The notes below the pieces were generated by a model that did not search any database, had not been told where the DNA came from, and saw only the letters and a list, made by a program, of their open reading frames with translations. This document shows positions 13,824-32,897 of a stretch of 64,000 nt of DNA, one piece after another. This DNA comes from a virus. Lineage: Duplodnaviria; Caudoviricetes. The stretch spans positions 31,924 to 95,923 of the IMG/VR virus record IMGVR_UViG_3300020336_000004; one strand, 5' to 3'. Numbering within the stretch: the stretch's first letter is position 1; each line of letters begins with the position of its first letter. Made by a program: the position numbers and the translations under genes.

Positions 13824-15116
13824 TCAGATTGTCTTCAGGAGTATAGTTTCAAGATTTATACGCCCGTTGAGCTTAGTATCTGTAGTTTTTATATCATCCA
13901 TGAACTTACGTAGTGCTACTTTACCTGCACCTTTAAACTCTTTTAATTGTTCTTCAGGCTTACGCATTGTCTTTTGTATACTTTCTTCTTCAATAAATCC
14001 AATGATAGTAGTACCTTTTACTTGTAGTCCACTACCTGGTCTTTGCATTCTTTGCGGATCTGGATCTTTAGCAACATATTTTCCTATCTTTCGAGTCTTA
14101 GTATTAAAGACCCAAAGCTCATTTGCGTATATAATGTCTGCAGGATTAATACTTACTAGATTATATTTGTCATCTTGTTTTTTATATTTAAGTTTAGCAA
14201 CAAGTTTTTCTGCACTGTATACTTTTGCTTTACGTGGCCTGCGTGTTGCTTTAGCACTTTCAATTATCATATCACATGCAACAAGAACTTTATCGATAGC
14301 ATTACCCCATAACGTCATTTCTTTTTTAGTTCTATGTGAATATCCTTCTTTTAATTGTTCCCACATGTCTGCTGTATGCTCGTCCATCTTTTTAAGCTGA
14401 GCAGGAGTAGGCATGTTTAACCAGTCATTAATTTCTTTCCACTCTGGTTGGAAAATGTCTTTGATCTTTCTAGCATGAGCTTGTGTAACTTTCATCTGGA
14501 TGAAATGTTTTTTGATATCTAATCCGTCTATTTTAAATGTTTTTGGATCTTCTACAAACCCATCTAACCATATATCTATTTTTTCACATGCGGAATATGC
14601 CTGTGCTAAAATTCTGTCTTGAATAGATATTACAGGCTTCTTGGCTTCTTTAGCTATTTCTTCATCTTTTTCTTTTTTAGCTTCTTTACCTGTATCAATA
14701 GCAATTTGAATACGTCTTTCTAAAAAGTCTATACTAGATTTAAGTTGTCCACTAGTACCTGGAAGACTATCCCAATATTCAGATTCTTTGTTGCTTAGTC
14801 TAGGAGCACCCATCATATCCATACGAGCAACAATACTTGCCGTAATGCTTAATGCATGATTAGGTGCGGCTTTGACCCATCTAATTTGGTCTTCAGTATA
14901 CTTGTCAGTTTGCTTCATCCATTCGTATACATAATCATACAAGTCTACACGTTTAAAGTGTTCATAGTACCAATCATGTGTATGACGTCTAAAGCGATGT
15001 ATTTGTTCGCCTGACCATTCTTCCCAGCCTTCCCAGCTAGGTTCTTTGAGTTTGGCACCCCTTTGTAACCGCGGAGCGGCTCTAGGTTTTCTCTTCTTAA
15101 CTTTCGGTAAGGCCAA
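13824..15116 (-). CDS. Hypothetical phage protein (430 aa)
   Basis: Long ORF with AGGAG RBS and an upstream sigma70-like promoter. Confidence 0.75.
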   Translation of the reverse strand: MALPKVKKRKPRAAPRLQRGAKLKEPSWEGWEEWSGEQIHRFRRHTHDWYYEHFKRVDLYDYVYEWMKQTDKYTEDQIRWVKAAPNHALSITASIVARMDMMGAPRLSNKESEYWDSLPGTSGQLKSSIDFLERRIQIAIDTGKEAKKEKDEEIAKEAKKPVISIQDRILAQAYSACEKIDIWLDGFVEDPKTFKIDGLDIKKHFIQMKVTQAHARKIKDIFQPEWKEINDWLNMPTPAQLKKMDEHTADMWEQLKEGYSHRTKKEMTLWGNAIDKVLVACDMIIESAKATRRPRKAKVYSAEKLVAKLKYKKQDDKYNLVSINPADIIYANELWVFNTKTRKIGKYVAKDPDPQRMQRPGSGLQVKGTTIIGFIEEESIQKTMRKPEEQLKEFKGAGKVALRKFMDDIKTTDTKLNGRINLETILLKTI

Positions 15117-15192
15117 TTTTATTCTCCTAAAAAATTACGTCTACAAAGATTATATAGCCATTTGAGATAAAAGTCTACTTTTTTTGACTTAA

Positions 15193-16512
15193 CTAAACTT
15201 TTTCGCCTGCGTCAAATCCGCGGAATGTTTTGAATCTTGGAAAGCGTAAACTGTACGTTCCATCTTGATTTTGTGTGATAGCATCTGCTCTTACTTCTAC
15301 AAGTTGACCTGGGATATTATCGCGACCAGTCCAAAACTCATCACGATTAACATCACTAAAGCCACTACCGACATTAACATTAATTTTCTTTCCGTCATCA
15401 GTTCCTTCACAAACAAATGCACCAAGTCGTCCTTCATTTCGTCCTGTTCCTTCTTCAACATCTTTAACCTCCAATGTCACTTCTATAAATGGTTTAGCCT
15501 TAAGCCAAGCGTGAGTTCGTTTACATTCATACGGAGCATCAATGTCTTTGATCATAACACCTTCATAACCACCGTCTACAGCCGCTTTATTAAGCCCTAC
15601 AAAGCGTTCTTGTCCTTCTGTGGTGTCTAAGTCTACCTCTTCCCATTCAAGTGCTTGTACGTGCTTTAAAACGCTTCTATGATCCTCTACCCAGTGCTTA
15701 GTAATTTGGCTTCTAAAGCTCTGTGGCTTATCCCAACTACCGTTTTTAAAACAACCTAAAGGAATAGTATCAAACAAATGTAATACTGCATCATCGTTTT
15801 GTACATTGTCTTTACGATGTACCTGTTTCATTAGATCCTGAAAGTTTGCACTCATTACTTCTCCGTCTAGTACTAGCGGATAAGGTACAGGATTTTCTTT
15901 AATTACTGTCTCAATCTCTTCAATAATGTGTCCAAAGTTATGAAACTGTTTTCCATTACGACTAAACATTTCTACTTTGTCGCCTTGGATAATAGTAATA
16001 ACTCTTACACCGTCTAATTTAATTTCAATTTGTTTTTTGCCTACCATCTTCTTTTCATGGTTAGCTGAGTCATGTGCAAGTGAACAAGTAAAAGTAGGAA
16101 TAGCATACTGTGGAAATTTTTTAGCAATCTTGTTTACAGTCTTTTCTGATACACCGCAACGTAAATCTTTTATTAAGATACGTCTATAAAACATATTCCA
16201 TTGTTCTGTAGTAGCAACACCCATTGCAAGTTCAATTGCATCACGTGCCGCATGACCCGTAAGTTCTCTTGCAATAAGTTTATCTGCAAGTTCTTTGAAC
16301 ACATTCCAACTTAGTCCTTGTCCTGTAAGTATATCTGTACGTTCAGGTACCTGCTTTACGCCAAATGTAACAAGTGGATCAAGTGCCATCTGGACACCTT
16401 CGAAAAACTCGTCTAGTCCTTCTTGCATTGCTGATTGAATTACTGCTTCTTTAGCAAGACGACTATTGTCTAATTCTAATTTTTCAATTACTTGTTGTGG
16501 TTGTGTTCTCAT
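15193..16512 (-). CDS. lig: ATP-dependent DNA ligase
   Basis: KLDGVR, VLDGEV, EGVMIK, WLKAK, SLRFPRF. Confidence 0.95.
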   Translation of the reverse strand: MRTQPQQVIEKLELDNSRLAKEAVIQSAMQEGLDEFFEGVQMALDPLVTFGVKQVPERTDILTGQGLSWNVFKELADKLIARELTGHAARDAIELAMGVATTEQWNMFYRRILIKDLRCGVSEKTVNKIAKKFPQYAIPTFTCSLAHDSANHEKKMVGKKQIEIKLDGVRVITIIQGDKVEMFSRNGKQFHNFGHIIEEIETVIKENPVPYPLVLDGEVMSANFQDLMKQVHRKDNVQNDDAVLHLFDTIPLGCFKNGSWDKPQSFRSQITKHWVEDHRSVLKHVQALEWEEVDLDTTEGQERFVGLNKAAVDGGYEGVMIKDIDAPYECKRTHAWLKAKPFIEVTLEVKDVEEGTGRNEGRLGAFVCEGTDDGKKINVNVGSGFSDVNRDEFWTGRDNIPGQLVEVRADAITQNQDGTYSLRFPRFKTFRGFDAGEKV

Positions 16513-16578
16513 GTGTGCCTCTGTATAAATTAATTATGTTTATATATTAGCACAGTTTGTGTAGTATGTCAACTAAAA

Positions 16579-16672
16579 TGGTAGTCCCGGGGGGATTCGA
16601 ACCCCCATCGCTCTCTAATCTGGAGACTGTGCCGAGTATAAGCCGGGTGTTTTACCGTTAAACTACGGGACT
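16579..16672 (-). tRNA. tRNA-Ile(UAU), 94 nt, with an extra ~20-nt hairpin; CCA encoded
   Basis: Acceptor AGUCCCG/CGGGACU-A-CCA; T arm GGGGG-UUCGAAU-CCCCC; anticodon loop CU-UAU-AC. Confidence 0.8.
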
Positions 16673-16675
16673 ATT

Positions 16676-16749
16676 TGGCATAGGTGGAGGGAATCGAACC
16701 CCCATTAACTGGTTTGGAATCAGTTGTGTTACCATTACACTACACCCAT
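16676..16749 (-). tRNA. tRNA-Trp(CCA)
   Basis: Acceptor AUGGGUG/CACCUAU-G-CCA; loop UU-CCA-AA; GUUCGA T loop. Confidence 0.9.
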
Positions 16750-16785
16750 AAAAAAAGCCCCTAACATTATTAGTGCTAGGGGCTT
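16750..16785 (-). terminator. Intrinsic terminator (attenuator) abutting the 5' end of tRNA-Trp
   Basis: AAGCCCCUAGCA-CUAAUAA-UGUUAGGGGC then U7. Confidence 0.85.
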
Positions 16786-16815
16786 ATCTAAAATAACTTT
16801 TTTTATAAAGTCATG

Positions 16816-16875
16816 TCAAGACATACCCCTTTTTAGTGGCCAACATATTATTCGTATTGTATTAGTCTTGATCAT
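16816..16875 (-). CDS. Putative attenuator leader peptide MIKTNTIRIICWPLKRGMS
   Basis: GAAGGAA RBS; codons ATG ATC AAG ACT AAT ACA ATA CGA ATA ATA TGT TGG CCA CTA AAA AGG GGT ATG TCT TGA. Confidence 0.75.
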   Translation of the reverse strand: MIKTNTIRIICWPLKRGMS

Positions 16876-16901
16876 GTATCTATTCCTTCTAGTATAAATT
16901 T

Positions 16902-16930
16902 ACTATACACTCGTTATTTAACAAAGTCAA
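16902..16930 (-). promoter_or_regulatory. Sigma70-type promoter for the leader-tRNA unit
   Basis: TTGACT-17 nt-TATAGT. Confidence 0.75.
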
Positions 16931-17160
16931 CCTTTTTTAGGGTCTTCCGGACGATTTTCTTGATCAGGATGCCAGTGAGTGACATCGCCAGTTAGAAATC
17001 CGTAATCACAATAGAAGATACTCATACCAGGCCAAACCTTGCCTTCTTCATCTTCATACAGTCCTCCATAAGTGCCTCTATGGGCACCTACTAAATCAAA
17101 GTAGTACCAACAGTTAGTTCCTACTTCCGGTAGTCTTTCGTCAACTTGAATCCATTCCAT
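16927..17160 (-). CDS. DUF551-like small phage protein
   Basis: MEWIQVDERLPE...VTHW. Confidence 0.75.
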   Translation of the reverse strand: MEWIQVDERLPEVGTNCWYYFDLVGAHRGTYGGLYEDEEGKVWPGMSIFYCDYGFLTGDVTHWHPDQENRPEDPKKG

Positions 17161-17214
17161 AATAAACTCCTTTCAAATAGATTATTGTGTTTGATGTTTA
17201 TTATGGTATCATTT

Positions 17215-17592
17215 TTATTCGTGTTCGCCACCTGGATCGTTAGGATCTAACGGAACCTTTTTAGCATTGCCTTTTTCGTCTCTCCAAATAGTATATGTTC
17301 TTCCTCTACCGTATGAGTGATAACCGCCCATAAAGTTAAATGCAGTAGGCTTTCTTTTTGCAGTTTCAAATGTTGCTACTGTGACAGCAATAGCACCTAA
17401 TAGAAGTGTATGCAATAACATACTAAACACTCCTGCGTACATACTACCTACGATAATACCAAATACAACACACCACATCCATGCTAATACTTGCATAATC
17501 ATGTGTCTTGTACTGAAGTCAGGAATAGCACTTAAAGGATTTTTCTCATAATCCATTACACTATTCCAACAATCATAAACCCATTCTCTCAT
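17215..17592 (-). CDS. Hypothetical membrane protein
   Basis: Two hydrophobic segments; start MREW after an AAAGG RBS. Confidence 0.7.
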   Translation of the reverse strand: MREWVYDCWNSVMDYEKNPLSAIPDFSTRHMIMQVLAWMWCVVFGIIVGSMYAGVFSMLLHTLLLGAIAVTVATFETAKRKPTAFNFMGGYHSYGRGRTYTIWRDEKGNAKKVPLDPNDPGGEHE

Positions 17593-17648
17593 TTTAAGGA
17601 CCTTTCTATGTATTTTATAAACTATACTAGCACAGGATATGCTAGTTG

Positions 17649-17837
17649 TCAAGTGTTAAGTGAACCTACAGGCTTACAAATATATTCAACTGTATCCCAA
17701 GATCCATCAGCAGGTATTTCCATGTATTCTATAAGCATAGTTTCACACTTTGCTCTAGTTTCAAACCATTGTACATCTTGTTCTAAGCAGGTTGAGCCTG
17801 AACAAACTGTTAATAGTATATGCCAAATGATTTCCAT
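17649..17837 (-). CDS. Small Cys-containing hypothetical protein
   Basis: MEIIWH start after AAGGA. Confidence 0.65.
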   Translation of the reverse strand: MEIIWHILLTVCSGSTCLEQDVQWFETRAKCETMLIEYMEIPADGSWDTVEYICKPVGSLNT

Positions 17838-17852
17838 CTTGTTTCCTTTGTA

Positions 17853-17928
17853 TGGTGCTGGCACCAAGATTCGAACTCGGGACCTACTGATTACAAATCA
17901 GTTGCTCTACCAACTGAGCTATGCCAGC
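17853..17928 (-). tRNA. tRNA-Thr(UGU)
   Basis: Canonical 76-nt cloverleaf; loop UU-UGU-AA; CCA end. Confidence 0.95.
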
Positions 17929-17950
17929 GTCATTTATTTATATTCCATTA

Positions 17951-18040
17951 TGGCGGAGAGTGAGGGATTCGAACCCTCGATACAGTTGCCCGTATAACAC
18001 CTTAGCAGGGTGCCGCTTTCGACCACTCAGCCAACTCTCC
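17951..18040 (-). tRNA. tRNA-Ser(GCU)
   Basis: 90 nt, long variable arm, loop CU-GCU-AA, G73-CCA. Confidence 0.95.
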
Positions 18041-18046
18041 GAAATC

Positions 18047-18466
18047 TTATTTGATGTATCGTAAGGTGTGTGATCTACCGTCATCATCATAAAAAGTAAT
18101 AGTGCTATGACTGTATACTTCTGAAGACATTTCATTATATCTAGTTTCAACAGTGCATTGTGTTCTAGTTCCACCTGTTGCGTTAGAATTATTATGTCCT
18201 AAAATGCCACCAATGATTGCACCTGCGGCGCCACCGTTTTCAATATTGCCAACATTGTTACCAATGATGCCGCCAATGATTGCACCTTTTAATGCATCAC
18301 CAGTTTTGTCTCCGTTAACGTTTACGTCACGGCACACTTCTACACTATACGGTGTTTGACTAATTACAATTTTATAATGATCTGTAATTGTACCTGTAGT
18401 ACTGTAGGCATTTGCAGAGGTTGCAAACAATGCAAACATTCCTGCTATAATTAATTTTTTATTCAA
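18047..18466 (-). CDS. Exported glycine-zipper protein (YcfJ-like)
   Basis: Signal peptide; GAIIGGIIG...GAAGAIIGGILG. Confidence 0.8.
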   Translation of the reverse strand: MNKKLIIAGMFALFATSANAYSTTGTITDHYKIVISQTPYSVEVCRDVNVNGDKTGDALKGAIIGGIIGNNVGNIENGGAAGAIIGGILGHNNSNATGGTRTQCTVETRYNEMSSEVYSHSTITFYDDDGRSHTLRYIK

Positions 18467-18470
18467 GACT

Positions 18471-18887
18471 TTATCCTTTCTCTAGAATTTGGCCTGCCTG
18501 AGAAGATTCGAACTCCTGACCTTCTGGTTCGTAGCCAGACGCTCTATCCAGCTGAGCTACAGGCAGTACTGTTTGGACTCGATCGTATTTAAATGATCTC
18601 CATCCTTTTGCATTAAGGTCCCACACGGTAATTGTACCTTGTTTTGGTTCCTTATCTGATTTTGGTTGATTTTCTTTTGGAATTATGTCAAAACTTTTTG
18701 TGCAAGTCATTACACGTTTGTCACCGTCAAGTTTTAGAAACGTTACTTCCTGTGTTGTTTCTCTTAACAGTTGGATCAGTTCTTTTTCTGTTGGAATCCC
18801 TTTCATGGTTGCTATTGCTTCTTCCACCAAAGATTTCTCCCCAGTTGTCTCTGTACTTTGCATCATCTTGTCCTTTTCTTCTACCAC
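18471..18887 (-). CDS. SH3/Sm-like WYL_2 (DUF2693)-type phage protein; its C-terminus overlaps tRNA-Arg
   Basis: VTFLKLDGDKRVMTCT...VWDL.AKGWRSF; start uncertain. Confidence 0.75.
   Translation of the reverse strand: MVEEKDKMMQSTETTGEKSLVEEAIATMKGIPTEKELIQLLRETTQEVTFLKLDGDKRVMTCTKSFDIIPKENQPKSDKEPKQGTITVWDLNAKGWRSFKYDRVQTVLPVAQLDRASGYEPEGQEFESSQAGQILEKG
18490..18566 (-). tRNA. tRNA-Arg(ACG)
   Basis: CUGCCUG/CAGGCAG-G-CCA; loop CU-ACG-AA; 77 nt. Confidence 0.93.
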
Positions 18888-18915
18888 TACCTTTTCCTCC
18901 TTGCCATTGGCTCAT
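18727..18915 (-). CDS. Small basic hypothetical protein
   Basis: MSQWQGGKGSGRRK...YRDNWGEIF; ATG overlaps the upstream stop. Confidence 0.5.
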   Translation of the reverse strand: MSQWQGGKGSGRRKGQDDAKYRDNWGEIFGGRSNSNHERDSNRKRTDPTVKRNNTGSNVSKT

Positions 18916-19124
18916 AGTTCTTCTACAATACCTAATACTTCTGCAATAATTAGTAATGCACCTGCAACCATAACCCAAACACCCCATTCTTCAAGGTACC
19001 AGCCGGCTACAAGAAATGCTCCACCTGCGGCAATACGTACTGCACTTTTAACAAGGCTAACGTAAAAATGAAATAGACTAGGATCTTTTGCGGCTGGAAT
19101 AATTATTTTTTCTGGAATTGGCAT
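18912..19124 (-). CDS. Small membrane protein
   Basis: Two hydrophobic helices; coupled to the clpP stop. Confidence 0.7.
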   Translation of the reverse strand: MPIPEKIIIPAAKDPSLFHFYVSLVKSAVRIAAGGAFLVAGWYLEEWGVWVMVAGALLIIAEVLGIVEEL

Positions 19125-19708
19125 TATCTACTCTCCATAATTTTATCTGCAAGGCCATAATTAACTGCTTCGCTGGCACTCATAAAGTTATCTCTATCCA
19201 TATCTGCTTCAAGTGTAGCATAACTTTGTCCTGTATGCTTTTCGTACAGTTTAGTTAATGTTTCTTTCCAATACTGTAGTTCTTTATATTGAATTTCAAC
19301 GTCACTTGCTTGACCTTGTGTTCCACCAAGGGGTTGATGAATCATATGCCTACTGTGAGGAAGGACAACTCTTTTACCTTTTGCACCTGCACTGGCTAAG
19401 AAACTGCCCATACTAGCGGCTTGTCCCATTACAATAGTACTAACTGGACTTTTAATAAATTGCATAGTATCGTAGATACTCATACCAGCAGTAACAGATC
19501 CGCCCGGACTATTAATATAAAAGTTGATAGTCTTCTCCGGGTTTTGGCTTTCTAAGAAAAGCATTTGCGATACAATTAAACTAGCAGATGCACTATTCAC
19601 ATCTGTGTCTAACATTATAATACGATCTTTTAATAATCTGCTATAAATGTCGTAGCTTCTTTCACCACGGCTTTCTTTTTCAATTACTACAGGTACTAAG
19701 TTAGGCAT
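19124..19708 (-). CDS. clpP: ClpP protease
   Basis: [35 protein letters not shown]. Confidence 0.96.
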
Positions 19709-19904
19709 TGGATGTCATCTCTGTTTTAACTAAAGGAGTAACTGTAGAAACATCATTATAGTCTCCATCCTTTAAAAATTGTCTTGTTGTAATTTCCTGC
19801 CTAAGCATTCCATCTTTGATACGGTAAGTAATAAGTTCTTGCTTAATTACTCCGCTTGTTGGTTTGGATAATGCGTCCAAGTATGGACCTTCTTTGATTT
19901 CCAT
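19701..19904 (-). CDS. Hypothetical protein
   Basis: Translationally coupled ORF. Confidence 0.65.
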
Positions 19905-20137
19905 TAAATTCTCCCGTTATAACGTTTTGCTATTTGTTTAGGTCCTGGTGTAGTAAACTCCATTCCCATTTTATTGCCTACATAAACTCTGCCGTTGTAT
20001 TTGCAGTAAATTTTGTTTCCTGCAACATATGCATTTAATCCATCTTCGGCCTTAAAATTATCTATTTCAGCCTCAACTACTTTGTCGTTGTCTGTACAAG
20101 TTAGTTGCACTCGATTGTCATAATATGCATTTGTCAT
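19904..20137 (-). CDS. Hypothetical protein
   Basis: AAGGA RBS; TTGACA-17-TATAAT upstream. Confidence 0.7.
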   Translation of the reverse strand: MTNAYYDNRVQLTCTDNDKVVEAEIDNFKAEDGLNAYVAGNKIYCKYNGRVYVGNKMGMEFTTPGPKQIAKRYNGRI

Positions 20138-31880: not shown

Positions 31881-32897
31881 CTAGATTCTAAATTCCATTT
31901 GAGGGTGTACTTCTTGGTCTGGACCATATAGTAGCGGTTGCTGGGCTTTAAGAACTCCACTTACTGCTTCAGCATCTGTAAAATATAAACTGTGTCGTTT
32001 AGGGCCGTCTAACAATAACATTGTTTCAAACTTACTCATAGTTTTATAATTTTGAAAACTTGCAAGTCCCCATTCGTGTTTTATTTGATTATTTTCACCA
32101 GTTTCAATAGCAGCTCTTAACTTCTGTGTTTGATTTTTGTCTAAGAATGCAAATGCTCCTTCTAATATAGTTGTAACTAAGTCTTTAAATCCTGCCGTGT
32201 CTGCTTGTTGTGCTTCACTACGTACAGAGTCTGTCCATTTTTTAGCACTTACTGCTCTGCCAGGATCTATTCCTAAGTTTTTAAATGCGGCTTCAATAGC
32301 ACGTTGATTCATTTTTGCTTTTCTTACATCAACAAATCTACCACCTGAAGACTGTTTTGCTTTTACTTCACACATTTCTCCAAGAATAACAAGATCGCCG
32401 GCACTGTCTGCACTACGTCCACTTGCTTTGATTTCAGGACTTAACACTGCTAGAGCATATTCGCCTGGTCCTATGCCTTGTGGAGCATATGTATATAAGT
32501 TATCAAATACACGTTTTACAAATTCATCACCCATTAGCCATTCACTAAAACCGTGTACTTGGTTAGGTGTTTTTAATTTTTCAACATCAATATATCCGTT
32601 TGGATAATTTTGTACAAATGCTTGTTTGTCAGCAAATGTACCTTCGGTATTCATTACAAGTCCTGCAAAAACTTTTAACTTAGACTTTGCGTCTTCATCT
32701 TTTTCTAAGGCACCTGCAATTCTTTCATCTAATGTTGATTTTTCAAGAGCTTGATATATCTTATCTAACATATCTCTATCTTCTTCAGTTTGAAGTCTTT
32801 TTACAATTAGATCTTTTAACTGGTCATCAGATACGTTAGGATCATATTCTAACAATACTTTGTTTGGATTGATTGCTTTAAACTCGTTGAAACGCAT
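31881..32897 (-). CDS. Probable internal head protein with a PD-(D/E)xK-like motif
   Basis: MRFNEF N-terminus; GIGPGE...GDLVILGEMCEVK. Confidence 0.55.
   Translation of the reverse strand: MRFNEFKAINPNKVLLEYDPNVSDDQLKDLIVKRLQTEEDRDMLDKIYQALEKSTLDERIAGALEKDEDAKSKLKVFAGLVMNTEGTFADKQAFVQNYPNGYIDVEKLKTPNQVHGFSEWLMGDEFVKRVFDNLYTYAPQGIGPGEYALAVLSPEIKASGRSADSAGDLVILGEMCEVKAKQSSGGRFVDVRKAKMNQRAIEAAFKNLGIDPGRAVSAKKWTDSVRSEAQQADTAGFKDLVTTILEGAFAFLDKNQTQKLRAAIETGENNQIKHEWGLASFQNYKTMSKFETMLLLDGPKRHSLYFTDAEAVSGVLKAQQPLLYGPDQEVHPQMEFRI

Follow-up and report, generated by a model that had tools for sequence, protein, structure and literature searches.

A putative ribosome-mediated attenuator in front of phage tRNA genes, with leader codons that follow the tRNAs behind it

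In a 64,000-nucleotide stretch of viral DNA (positions 31,924 to 95,923 of IMG/VR record IMGVR_UViG_3300020336_000004; hereafter the window), two transfer RNA (tRNA) genes, tRNA-Trp(CCA) and tRNA-Ile(UAU), stand behind a short leader which, judging from its sequence and that of its relatives, is likely to be a ribosome-mediated attenuator of the trp/his type with the sensed phage tRNAs as its output. With such a unit, synthesis of these tRNAs would probably be confined to times at which ribosomes are slow to read the leader codons. The record to which the window belongs is a viral metagenome sequence of 95.9 kb with an estimated completeness of 27%; all features of the leader/tRNA unit lie on the minus strand (Table 1). 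The promoter, ribosome-binding site, 19-codon open reading frame (ORF), terminator and tRNAs are found where a first-pass annotation of the window had placed them; that annotation had also read the arrangement as an attenuator, an interpretation that the comparison with relatives supports. Within the ORF, three ATA codons precede a single TGG; given the phage's own usage of 22.8 ATA per 1000 codons, the probability of at least three ATA in 18 codons is P = 0.0075. This anatomy can be observed, and so can its conservation in relatives, together with constraints of the kind that translation imposes, alternative RNA structures and a match between leader codons and tRNA genes.

Leader codons and the tRNA genes behind them

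Relatives of the unit were gathered from marine viral and metagenome contigs by four routes: in viral contigs with the protein of the neighbouring ligase gene, with the 15-mer GGGGTATGTCTTRAC and with the extra-arm sequence of tRNA-Ile, and in metagenome contigs with a 19-mer of segment 2, the stretch that spans the end of the leader ORF. Matches to the 15-mer without a tRNA-Trp behind them were all chance matches in unrelated DNA or loci cut at their ends. After removal of duplicates and incomplete arrays, the final set comprised 109 pairings of a leader ORF with a tRNA array, all distinct from one another. A tRNA-Trp is present in the array behind all 109 leaders and comes first in 108; of the exceptions to this order, one is a tRNA that ARAGORN did not call and the other a Cys-Trp order. 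Of 100 distinct upstream regions, 92 have a TTGACN-17(16)-TAnnnT promoter at the position seen in the window, and all 100 have a Shine-Dalgarno-like motif (AAGGA in 85). In 59 arrays, the U-tract of the terminator ends 0-2 nt before tRNA-Trp. In the window, the gene begins on the base right after the U-tract, which leaves no room between the two for the separate promoter that the first-pass annotation had named as incompatible with its proposal.

The tRNAs that follow tRNA-Trp vary between arrays (Pro, Cys, Ser, Gln, Tyr, Ile, Arg, Glu, Gly, Lys and a tRNA with a CAU anticodon), and the leader varies with them. For each tRNA, the number of its cognate codons per leader was compared between arrays that contain it and arrays that do not. 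With tRNA-Ile(UAU), there are 3.06 ATA codons per leader, as opposed to 0.33 without, and at least one ATA is present in 17 of 17 leaders as opposed to 22%. Tyr codons amount to 1.83 with tRNA-Tyr(GUA), occurring in six of six such arrays, and to 0.41 without; the corresponding values are 2.80 and 0.85 for TCN with Ser(UGA), 3.07 and 0.92 for CAR with Gln(UUG), 1.21 and 0.81 for Cys, 0.43 and 0.04 for Glu, and 0.50 and 0.08 for Arg(ACG). Pro codons show no difference (1.69 and 1.60, p = 0.27). The global score for the match between codons and tRNAs is 334, compared with 215 +/- 9.6 under permutation, and none of 5000 permutations reaches it. With the presence of tRNA-Ile(UAU), ATT drops from 0.82 to 0.06 per leader; ATT is replaced by ATA, and the change is thus codon-specific. 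Two leaders may serve as examples: M-M-N-T-I-Q-I-I-S-Y-I-W-C-P-T-Y... stands before the array Trp-Tyr-Pro-Cys-Ile (L301), and ...I-I-L-Q-Q-P-I-Y-W-Y-P-I... before Trp-Ile-Tyr-Pro (L205). As the attenuator proposal would have it, leader codons and downstream anticodons co-vary, most clearly AUA with Ile(UAU).

Kinship was controlled for by independent pairs on a tree of the leader flanks and tRNA-Trp with the sensing codons removed (109 rows). A first tree of 56 leaders had been set aside as too poorly resolved, having one independent pair on well-supported branches. On the larger tree, there are at least 11 changes of state for tRNA-Ile(UAU). Among independent pairs on well-supported branches, 5.5 of 6 for Ile shift the leader as predicted, and none shifts it the other way (p = 0.03); for Tyr, five of six do so, again with none opposite. 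Summed over eight tRNA types, about 26 pairs follow the prediction and 1.4 oppose it, the latter almost all from Pro. Ser(UGA), Gln, Cys, Glu and Arg(ACG) match in the pooled counts and are weak or not significant in the independent contrasts on the tree. Codon usage was rejected as a confounder: the frequency of ATA per 1000 codons in long ORFs is 22.7 (tat+) versus 17.6 (tat-), that in leaders about 154 versus 18.

The tRNAs with a CAU anticodon, which ARAGORN calls as tRNA-Met, occur in eight arrays (L313:550-624, L347:11737-11811, L407:6858-6934 and five more). The leaders of these arrays hold 1-4 ATA codons (mean 2.6) and no extra ATG, and most of the tRNAs show the pair C4-G69; instead of tRNA-Met, they may represent tRNA-Ile2 of the lysidine type. 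As to their being Met or Ile2, no E. coli tRNA matches them, and the look-alikes in phage records are mostly tRNA-Met, once tRNA-Ile.

The leader frame and its alternative RNA structures

By its pattern of change, the leader ORF is translated or at least codon-constrained. The frame from start to stop is kept in 106 of 114 distinct leader sites, spread over five length classes of 15-22 sense codons, compared with an expected third; this goes beyond structure alone, since the helix that joins the start region to the stop region (helix 1:2, formed by segments 1 and 2) would keep the start and stop codons, but not the frame. Of the exceptions, two simply stop three codons earlier. Synonymous variation is seen at Pro (CCA/CCG/CCT) and Cys (TGT/TGC) codons. 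TGG, on whose conservation the attenuator proposal hinged, is present in every leader, at codon 10-13. At the last leader codons it is the nucleotide sequence (GGGGTATGTCTT) that is conserved, also in leaders whose frame closes before this stretch (L022, L151), which points to a role of the stretch as RNA.

The distance from UGG to the GGGG of segment 2 is never below 10 nt: it is 10 nt in 43 distinct ORFs, 11 in 2, 13 in 19, 16 in 32 and 19 in 2. A bacterial ribosome protects about 9-10 nt beyond the A-site codon, and with this footprint, a spacing of at least 10 nt agrees with where the 3' edge of a ribosome would lie when UGG occupies the A site. Going by these distances, UGG would be the last codon that lets a waiting ribosome cover GCCAC and leave GGGG free, or one of the last three in the longer classes.

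Segment 2 has two sets of potential partners, either segment 1 together with an inner arm, GCCACU, or segment 3 in the 5' arm of the terminator. The minimum free energy (MFE) fold of 16895-16750 (-36.5 kcal/mol, z = -4.5, with none of 200 shuffles as good) contains both helix 1:2 and the terminator; six of the 12 pairs of the terminator stem are G-C, and the U7 run (T7 in the DNA) occupies 16756-16750. Across 56 aligned leaders, the terminated state is paired in 91.6% of cells, versus 29-53% in slid controls, and six pairs change on both sides, a covariation score that none of 500 shuffles reaches. The terminator is paired in 95% of cells in these relatives, with four two-sided changes, for example CG in 31 and UA in 20. 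In helix 1:2, the first base of the start codon forms A-U in 40 leaders and G-C in 16, without a mismatch, so that changes from ATG to GTG are compensated on the far side of the stop codon. All leaders together count 37 GTG and 74 ATG starts and equal numbers of TAA (37) and TGA (74) stops, and there seem to be two leader clades, one for each compensated state of helix 1:2. We read several of the "unpaired" cells of helix 1:2 as shifts of register, in which the bulge moves and an 11-bp helix is retained.

The inner arm, which the first-pass annotation had not described, is made up of the last base of TGG and the codons after it. Its pairing, GCCAC(U):(A)GGGGU, is recovered by RNAalifold on the 42 leaders of 19 codons, with CG in 42 of 42 twice; the third pair covaries (CG 27, UA 7), coupling a change from Pro to Leu after Trp to one from GGG to AGG. 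In the untranslated RNA, the translated region is thereby predicted to sequester all of segment 2, as in helix 1:2 of trp.

The competing 2:3 pairing of 11 out of 12 positions, described in the first-pass annotation, is present, two of its pairs being G-U, and forms the base of a longer hairpin, the antiterminator (16830-16778). In 104 out of 104 distinct leaders, all four GGGG:CCCC pairs are present in the predicted fold of the nascent RNA (mean -19 kcal/mol, z = -5), and seven short-spacer variants form the antiterminator hairpin from a different intervening sequence, UUGACGU with ACGUCAA. Cells of the 2:3 pairing are paired in 82%, versus 33-53% in slid controls, with columns that are near-invariant; between segments 2 and 3, RNAalifold keeps only the closing pairs GGGGU:GCCCC, as indels blur the middle. 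Compensatory changes, expected in both stems, are thus seen in the terminator and not in the 2:3 stem, whose nearly invariant sequence shows no strict covariation; it is conserved folding potential only that argues for the 2:3 antiterminator. Folding with segments masked by a ribosome behaves as anticipated: a stall on UGG or ATA yields the antiterminator in the nascent RNA, whereas the terminator is left without a competitor once the ribosome is placed at the stop codon. An internal promoter-like site, TTGACA-18-TATTTT (16819-16790), was considered as a source of the tRNAs and rejected: its -35 element is TTAACG in a third of the relatives, its TATTTT is accounted for by the antiterminator pairing, and a transcript from there would hold the whole terminator without segment 2.

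Table 1. Features of the leader/tRNA unit and the gene that follows it (window coordinates)
Feature	Position	Strand	Details
Sigma-70-type promoter TTGACT-17-TATAGT	16930-16902	minus	the leader's own
Shine-Dalgarno sequence AAGGAA	16888-16883	minus	7 nt upstream of ATG
Leader ORF	16875-16816	minus	19 sense codons and TGA, MIKTNTIRIICWPLKRGMS
Control codons ATA, CGA, ATA, ATA	16857-16846	minus	ATA at 16857-55, 16851-49 and 16848-46
TGG Trp control codon	16842-16840	minus	codon 12; invariant in relatives
Segment 1, CAUG-A-UCAAGAC	16876-16865	minus	includes start codon; pairs with 16822-16812 in MFE fold
Inner anti-antiterminator arm GCCACU	16840-16835	minus	pairs with AGGGGU 16830-16825 in MFE fold
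Segment 2, AGGGGUAUGUCUUGACAUG	16830-16812	minus	last codons, stop and 4 more bases
Antiterminator hairpin	16830-16778	minus	segment 2, conserved spacer hairpin and AAGCCCCU of terminator 5' arm; -21.2 kcal/mol
Intrinsic terminator stem-loop	16785-16774 with 16766-16755	minus	12 bp, 7-nt loop
tRNA-Trp(CCA)	16749-16676	minus	first putatively regulated gene; Rfam tRNA 63.5 bits
tRNA-Ile(UAU)	16673/2-16579	minus	second putatively regulated gene; 94-95 nt; Rfam tRNA 58.3 bits
Promoter TTGACA-17-TAATAT	16572-16544	minus	for ligase gene; end of tRNA unit
ATP-dependent DNA ligase gene	16512-15193	minus

The surroundings of the unit vary among its relatives. About 26 of the 109 arrays (L005, L019, L025, L032, L066, L049 and others) have an insert of 70-95 nt between the U-tract and tRNA-Trp, with long inverted repeats, for instance GAGTACACTC...GGGAGTGTATTC, and no obvious promoter; it might represent a mobile hairpin of small size or serve in processing. 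In L001, L010, L011, L016 and L075-L079, with the same neighbour genes, tRNA-Trp lies directly behind a plain promoter without leader ORF or terminator. This promoter is strong (TTGACA...TATATT/TATAGT) and lies about 30-60 nt upstream of tRNA-Trp. The existence of such leaderless relatives would make the attenuator an optional regulatory module within the lineage. One relative is found on a contig of 346,714 bp (Ga0222715_10000004, locus L363); blastn of the region against 50,697 phage records gave matches to the tRNAs only, and the ligase protein reaches at most 35% identity, to ligases of Bacillus and Lysinibacillus phages. By these comparisons, the source is an uncultured marine giant-phage lineage with no close cultured phage.

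The second gene of the unit, tRNA-Ile(UAU), follows tRNA-Trp in the order first described; the gap, given there as 3 nt, is better taken as 2 nt, as the acceptor stem pairs best from 16673. The pairs in its acceptor, D and anticodon stems match what we take to be the identity elements of E. coli IleRS (A73, C4-G69, U12-A23, C29-G41). It has a 20-nt extra arm with the stem TCTC/GAGA and the loop CAGATTA, a 19-mer of which occurs exactly in more than 118 viral contigs with very different arrays, mostly without a Trp leader. The gene is 100% identical across phages with differing leaders (loci L196-L306), and tRNA-Ile genes of Lactobacillus phages are 74-77% identical to it; from such comparisons, it looks like a widely exchanged phage tRNA.

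Upstream, the -35 element of the leader promoter overlaps the stop codon of a 77-aa ORF (17160-16927). Further away on the minus strand, a mechanically called 138-aa ORF (18471-18887) runs through a tRNA-Arg(ACG) gene (18490-18566), so that its true end must be upstream; in relatives, a promoter and a tRNA come after the gene for this protein (...TVWD.NA.GWRSFKY...). Between tRNA-Arg and a tRNA-Ser, a 139-aa ORF (18047-18466, minus strand) encodes a signal-like N-terminus and Gly-rich repeats of the GxxxG type (IIGGIIGNNVG...AIIGGILG), and a homologue of it sits before the leaderless tRNA-Trp in L223. The remaining 32 kb of the record, outside the window, hold no further tRNA genes.

Four metatranscriptome runs were available as contigs, which give no ends, strand or level and may include carried-over DNA, and were not used as evidence. 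In run X17, exact pieces cover both tRNAs (16573-16721), the 5' end of the ligase gene and an ORF at 17284-17586; none of the contigs of X17 and X18 extends over the leader. In X20, a relative's contig runs over 16711-16819, taking in tRNA-Trp sequence, the terminator and part of segment 2. In X18, a relative's contig joins the tRNA-Ile region to that of the 77-aa ORF (16957/16671), with 38 other letters replacing tRNA-Trp and the leader; it probably stems from a related phage with a different arrangement rather than from spliced RNA.

The proposed mechanism and its rivals

How would such a unit operate? For ribosome positions, kinetics and the response to tRNA supply, we infer the following course. 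From its own promoter, a leader RNA of about 146 nt would be made, and a ribosome would translate the 19-codon ORF during transcription. If translation is fluent, the ribosome at the last codons or the stop would sit on segment 2 (AGGGGUAUGUCUUGACAUG) or, alternatively, release it to pair again with the start region and GCCAC; in either case, the terminator would form and the transcript end one base before tRNA-Trp. If decoding is slow, the ribosome would be held at UGG or a preceding AUA, its footprint stopping short of GGGG, and the free segment 2 would pair with the 5' arm of the terminator (about -21 kcal/mol), blocking termination and allowing transcription of tRNA-Trp and tRNA-Ile(UAU). 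As the products are the tRNAs whose shortage slows the ribosome, this would amount to negative feedback, with tRNA supplied on demand. Most safely put, the model has a ribosome at the end of the ORF enforcing termination and one held at or before UGG permitting read-through.

Several observations weigh against this proposal. The stability of the antiterminator in the nascent RNA (-21.2 kcal/mol) exceeds that of helix 1:2 (-10.9 or -14.5 kcal/mol), so that the default of the untranslated RNA may be read-through rather than super-attenuation; conversely, the full RNA prefers the terminator even with segment 2 free (-26.7 kcal/mol). With such values, both the default state and the decision would rest on kinetics. 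The covariation of the 2:3 pairing is not above that of shuffles or controls, its columns being nearly invariant, and the metatranscriptome contigs could not show transcript starts, ends or levels. The leader has a single Trp codon, and the invariance of UGG is not purely a matter of coding, given that this triplet is also involved in conserved RNA pairings. Furthermore, the match between codons and tRNAs is incomplete. Pro codons do not track tRNA-Pro, nor is there tracking for Arg(GCG); a tRNA was gained or lost with the leader unchanged in 12 of 16 independent pairs for Cys and about 6 of 10 for Ser, and many gains and losses of Gln and Pro tRNAs likewise leave no trace. Thr and Asn codons are frequent in the leader, with their tRNAs located upstream of the attenuator, and six ATA-rich leaders have no tRNA-Ile(UAU), three of these having a CAU tRNA.

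Some of these points would suit a translation-coupled switch for general translation capacity, turned on by slow or absent ribosomes and off by brisk ones, with codon content secondary. A ribosome-free nascent RNA that favours the antiterminator by the margin just given, a start codon buried in helix 1:2, the single Trp codon and the many tRNA gains and losses without leader change all fit such a switch. Nevertheless, we regard it as improbable, because it leaves the codons unexplained: ATT gives way to two to five ATA exactly where tRNA-Ile(UAU) is present, in at least 6-11 independent backgrounds, Tyr, Ser and Gln codons follow their own tRNAs, and UGG and tRNA-Trp are invariant partners. 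The same dependence of leader codons on the tRNA genes behind them speaks against a free-standing small gene, encoding a micropeptide or a small RNA of about 146 nt and closed by a constitutive terminator, with the tRNAs arising from leaky read-through. Its own promoter and strong terminator, the well-folding RNA (z = -4.5), recurring peptide motifs such as C-W-P-P and the leaderless tRNA-Trp behind plain promoters in L001, L010, L016 and L075 would be in keeping with it; yet the lack of a promoter between terminator and tRNA-Trp makes the tRNAs depend on passage through the terminator, an alternative hairpin overlapping that terminator is conserved in 104 of 104 leaders, and the C-terminal residues are kept as nucleotides, not as protein, given that L022 and L151 stop earlier. 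To such a gene we attach little probability.

The invariance of Trp at codons 10-13, usually followed by Pro or Cys-Pro, brings to mind an arrest peptide of the TnaC/SecM type around this residue (C-W-P-P/W-C-P-P), which would sense a small molecule or the activity of elongation factor P. W-P-P and Pro-Pro are known stalling contexts (compare PMC8129111). However, the leader of the window reads W-P-L, and others W-C-T-P, W-C-S-P, W-Y-P and W-C-L-S, next to P-P and C-P-P, so that no residue beyond W is invariant; moreover, the switch from ATT to ATA acts at the level of the codon, not the residue, and Pro codons track nothing. We therefore hold an arrest peptide to be very improbable, and return to ribosome-mediated attenuation by cognate tRNA supply as the likely mode of action.

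Relation to known systems and significance

In its dimensions, the unit resembles the trp leader of E. coli, trpL, which yields a terminated transcript of 141 nt and has 15 codons with Trp at codons 10-11 (PMC1183508). Both have their own promoter and a short ORF with control codons, translated in trpL and apparently here, and the unit is predicted to share with trpL an anti-antiterminator, an antiterminator and a terminator hairpin that exclude one another; its terminated transcript would be about 146 nt compared to 141, the control codon is number 12 compared to 10-11, and the predicted antiterminator takes up about two-thirds of the 5' arm of the terminator, as it does in trpL. In contrast to trpL, segment 1 holds the start codon, a second, inner pairing sequesters GGGG, and helix 1:2 is less stable than the antiterminator. 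The class of ribosome-mediated attenuators further comprises his, leu, thr, ilvGMEDA, ilvBN as well as pheA, and its classical outputs are enzymes of amino-acid biosynthesis (PMC1183508), whereas the output here would be tRNA genes, acting directly on the sensed step. In an Rfam scan of 14000-20000 at E <= 1, there was no T-box or Trp_leader match, and the one match of a leader family was a sub-threshold Thr_leader (22.7 bits versus a gathering threshold of 55, E = 0.68).

Two further groups of regulators invite comparison. Multivalent leaders are represented by ilvGMEDA, which answers to Ile, Leu and Val, and by thr, which answers to Thr and Ile. Like these, the unit has one leader for several amino acids (UGG and AUA, in relatives also Tyr, Cys, Ser and Gln codons); unlike them, its codon mix is rewritten from phage to phage with the gain or loss of tRNA genes and is specific for synonymous codons (AUA, not AUU). 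Components of decoding are regulated by the state of the matching tRNA in the case of pheST, a synthetase under control of the pheM leader, and of T-boxes, which bind uncharged tRNA directly, without a ribosome and with a conserved T-box sequence. The unit shares this principle, but would control a tRNA rather than a synthetase as pheM does, and in contrast to T-boxes its leader is an apparently translated ORF and gives no T-box match. The first-pass annotation knew of no attenuator with the sensed tRNA as its output, and full-text searches of open-access papers and preprints likewise yielded none that describes an attenuator preceding tRNA genes. As far as sequence comparison goes, what would be new is the attenuator with tRNA output and a rewritten codon mix, while its logic and dimensions are those of the known trp/his class.

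Which circumstances could slow the ribosome in the leader? The triggers suggested in the first-pass annotation, namely anticodon nucleases, loss of lysidine and starvation, are speculation, and as regards amino-acid starvation, extra tRNA would not relieve it. One can take the idea further and view the leader as a phage alarm for attack on tRNAs, with tRNA blocks that stay silent until the host starves the ribosomes of those tRNAs by anticodon nucleases, tRNA degradation, host shut-off or a lost modification required for reading AUA, and with a leader rewritten upon each gain or loss of a tRNA, forming a programmable sensor of many tRNAs. Taken as a whole, we find this joint claim rather unlikely.

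Phage tRNA genes are usually seen as constitutive helpers of codon usage or as spares against the loss of host tRNAs, and to our knowledge their regulation is essentially uncharted. With about 100 relatives, a widespread lineage of marine giant phages seemingly keeps part of its tRNA set under a classical attenuator. If true, this would be the first attenuator with the sensed tRNA as output, and the shortest possible feedback on decoding speed. It would also mean that the identity of synonymous codons, AUA versus AUU, is under selection in a regulatory ORF, and it would offer a compact natural part for sensors of the supply of individual tRNAs. The locus thus makes the question of when and why phages need tRNAs of their own open to direct experiment.

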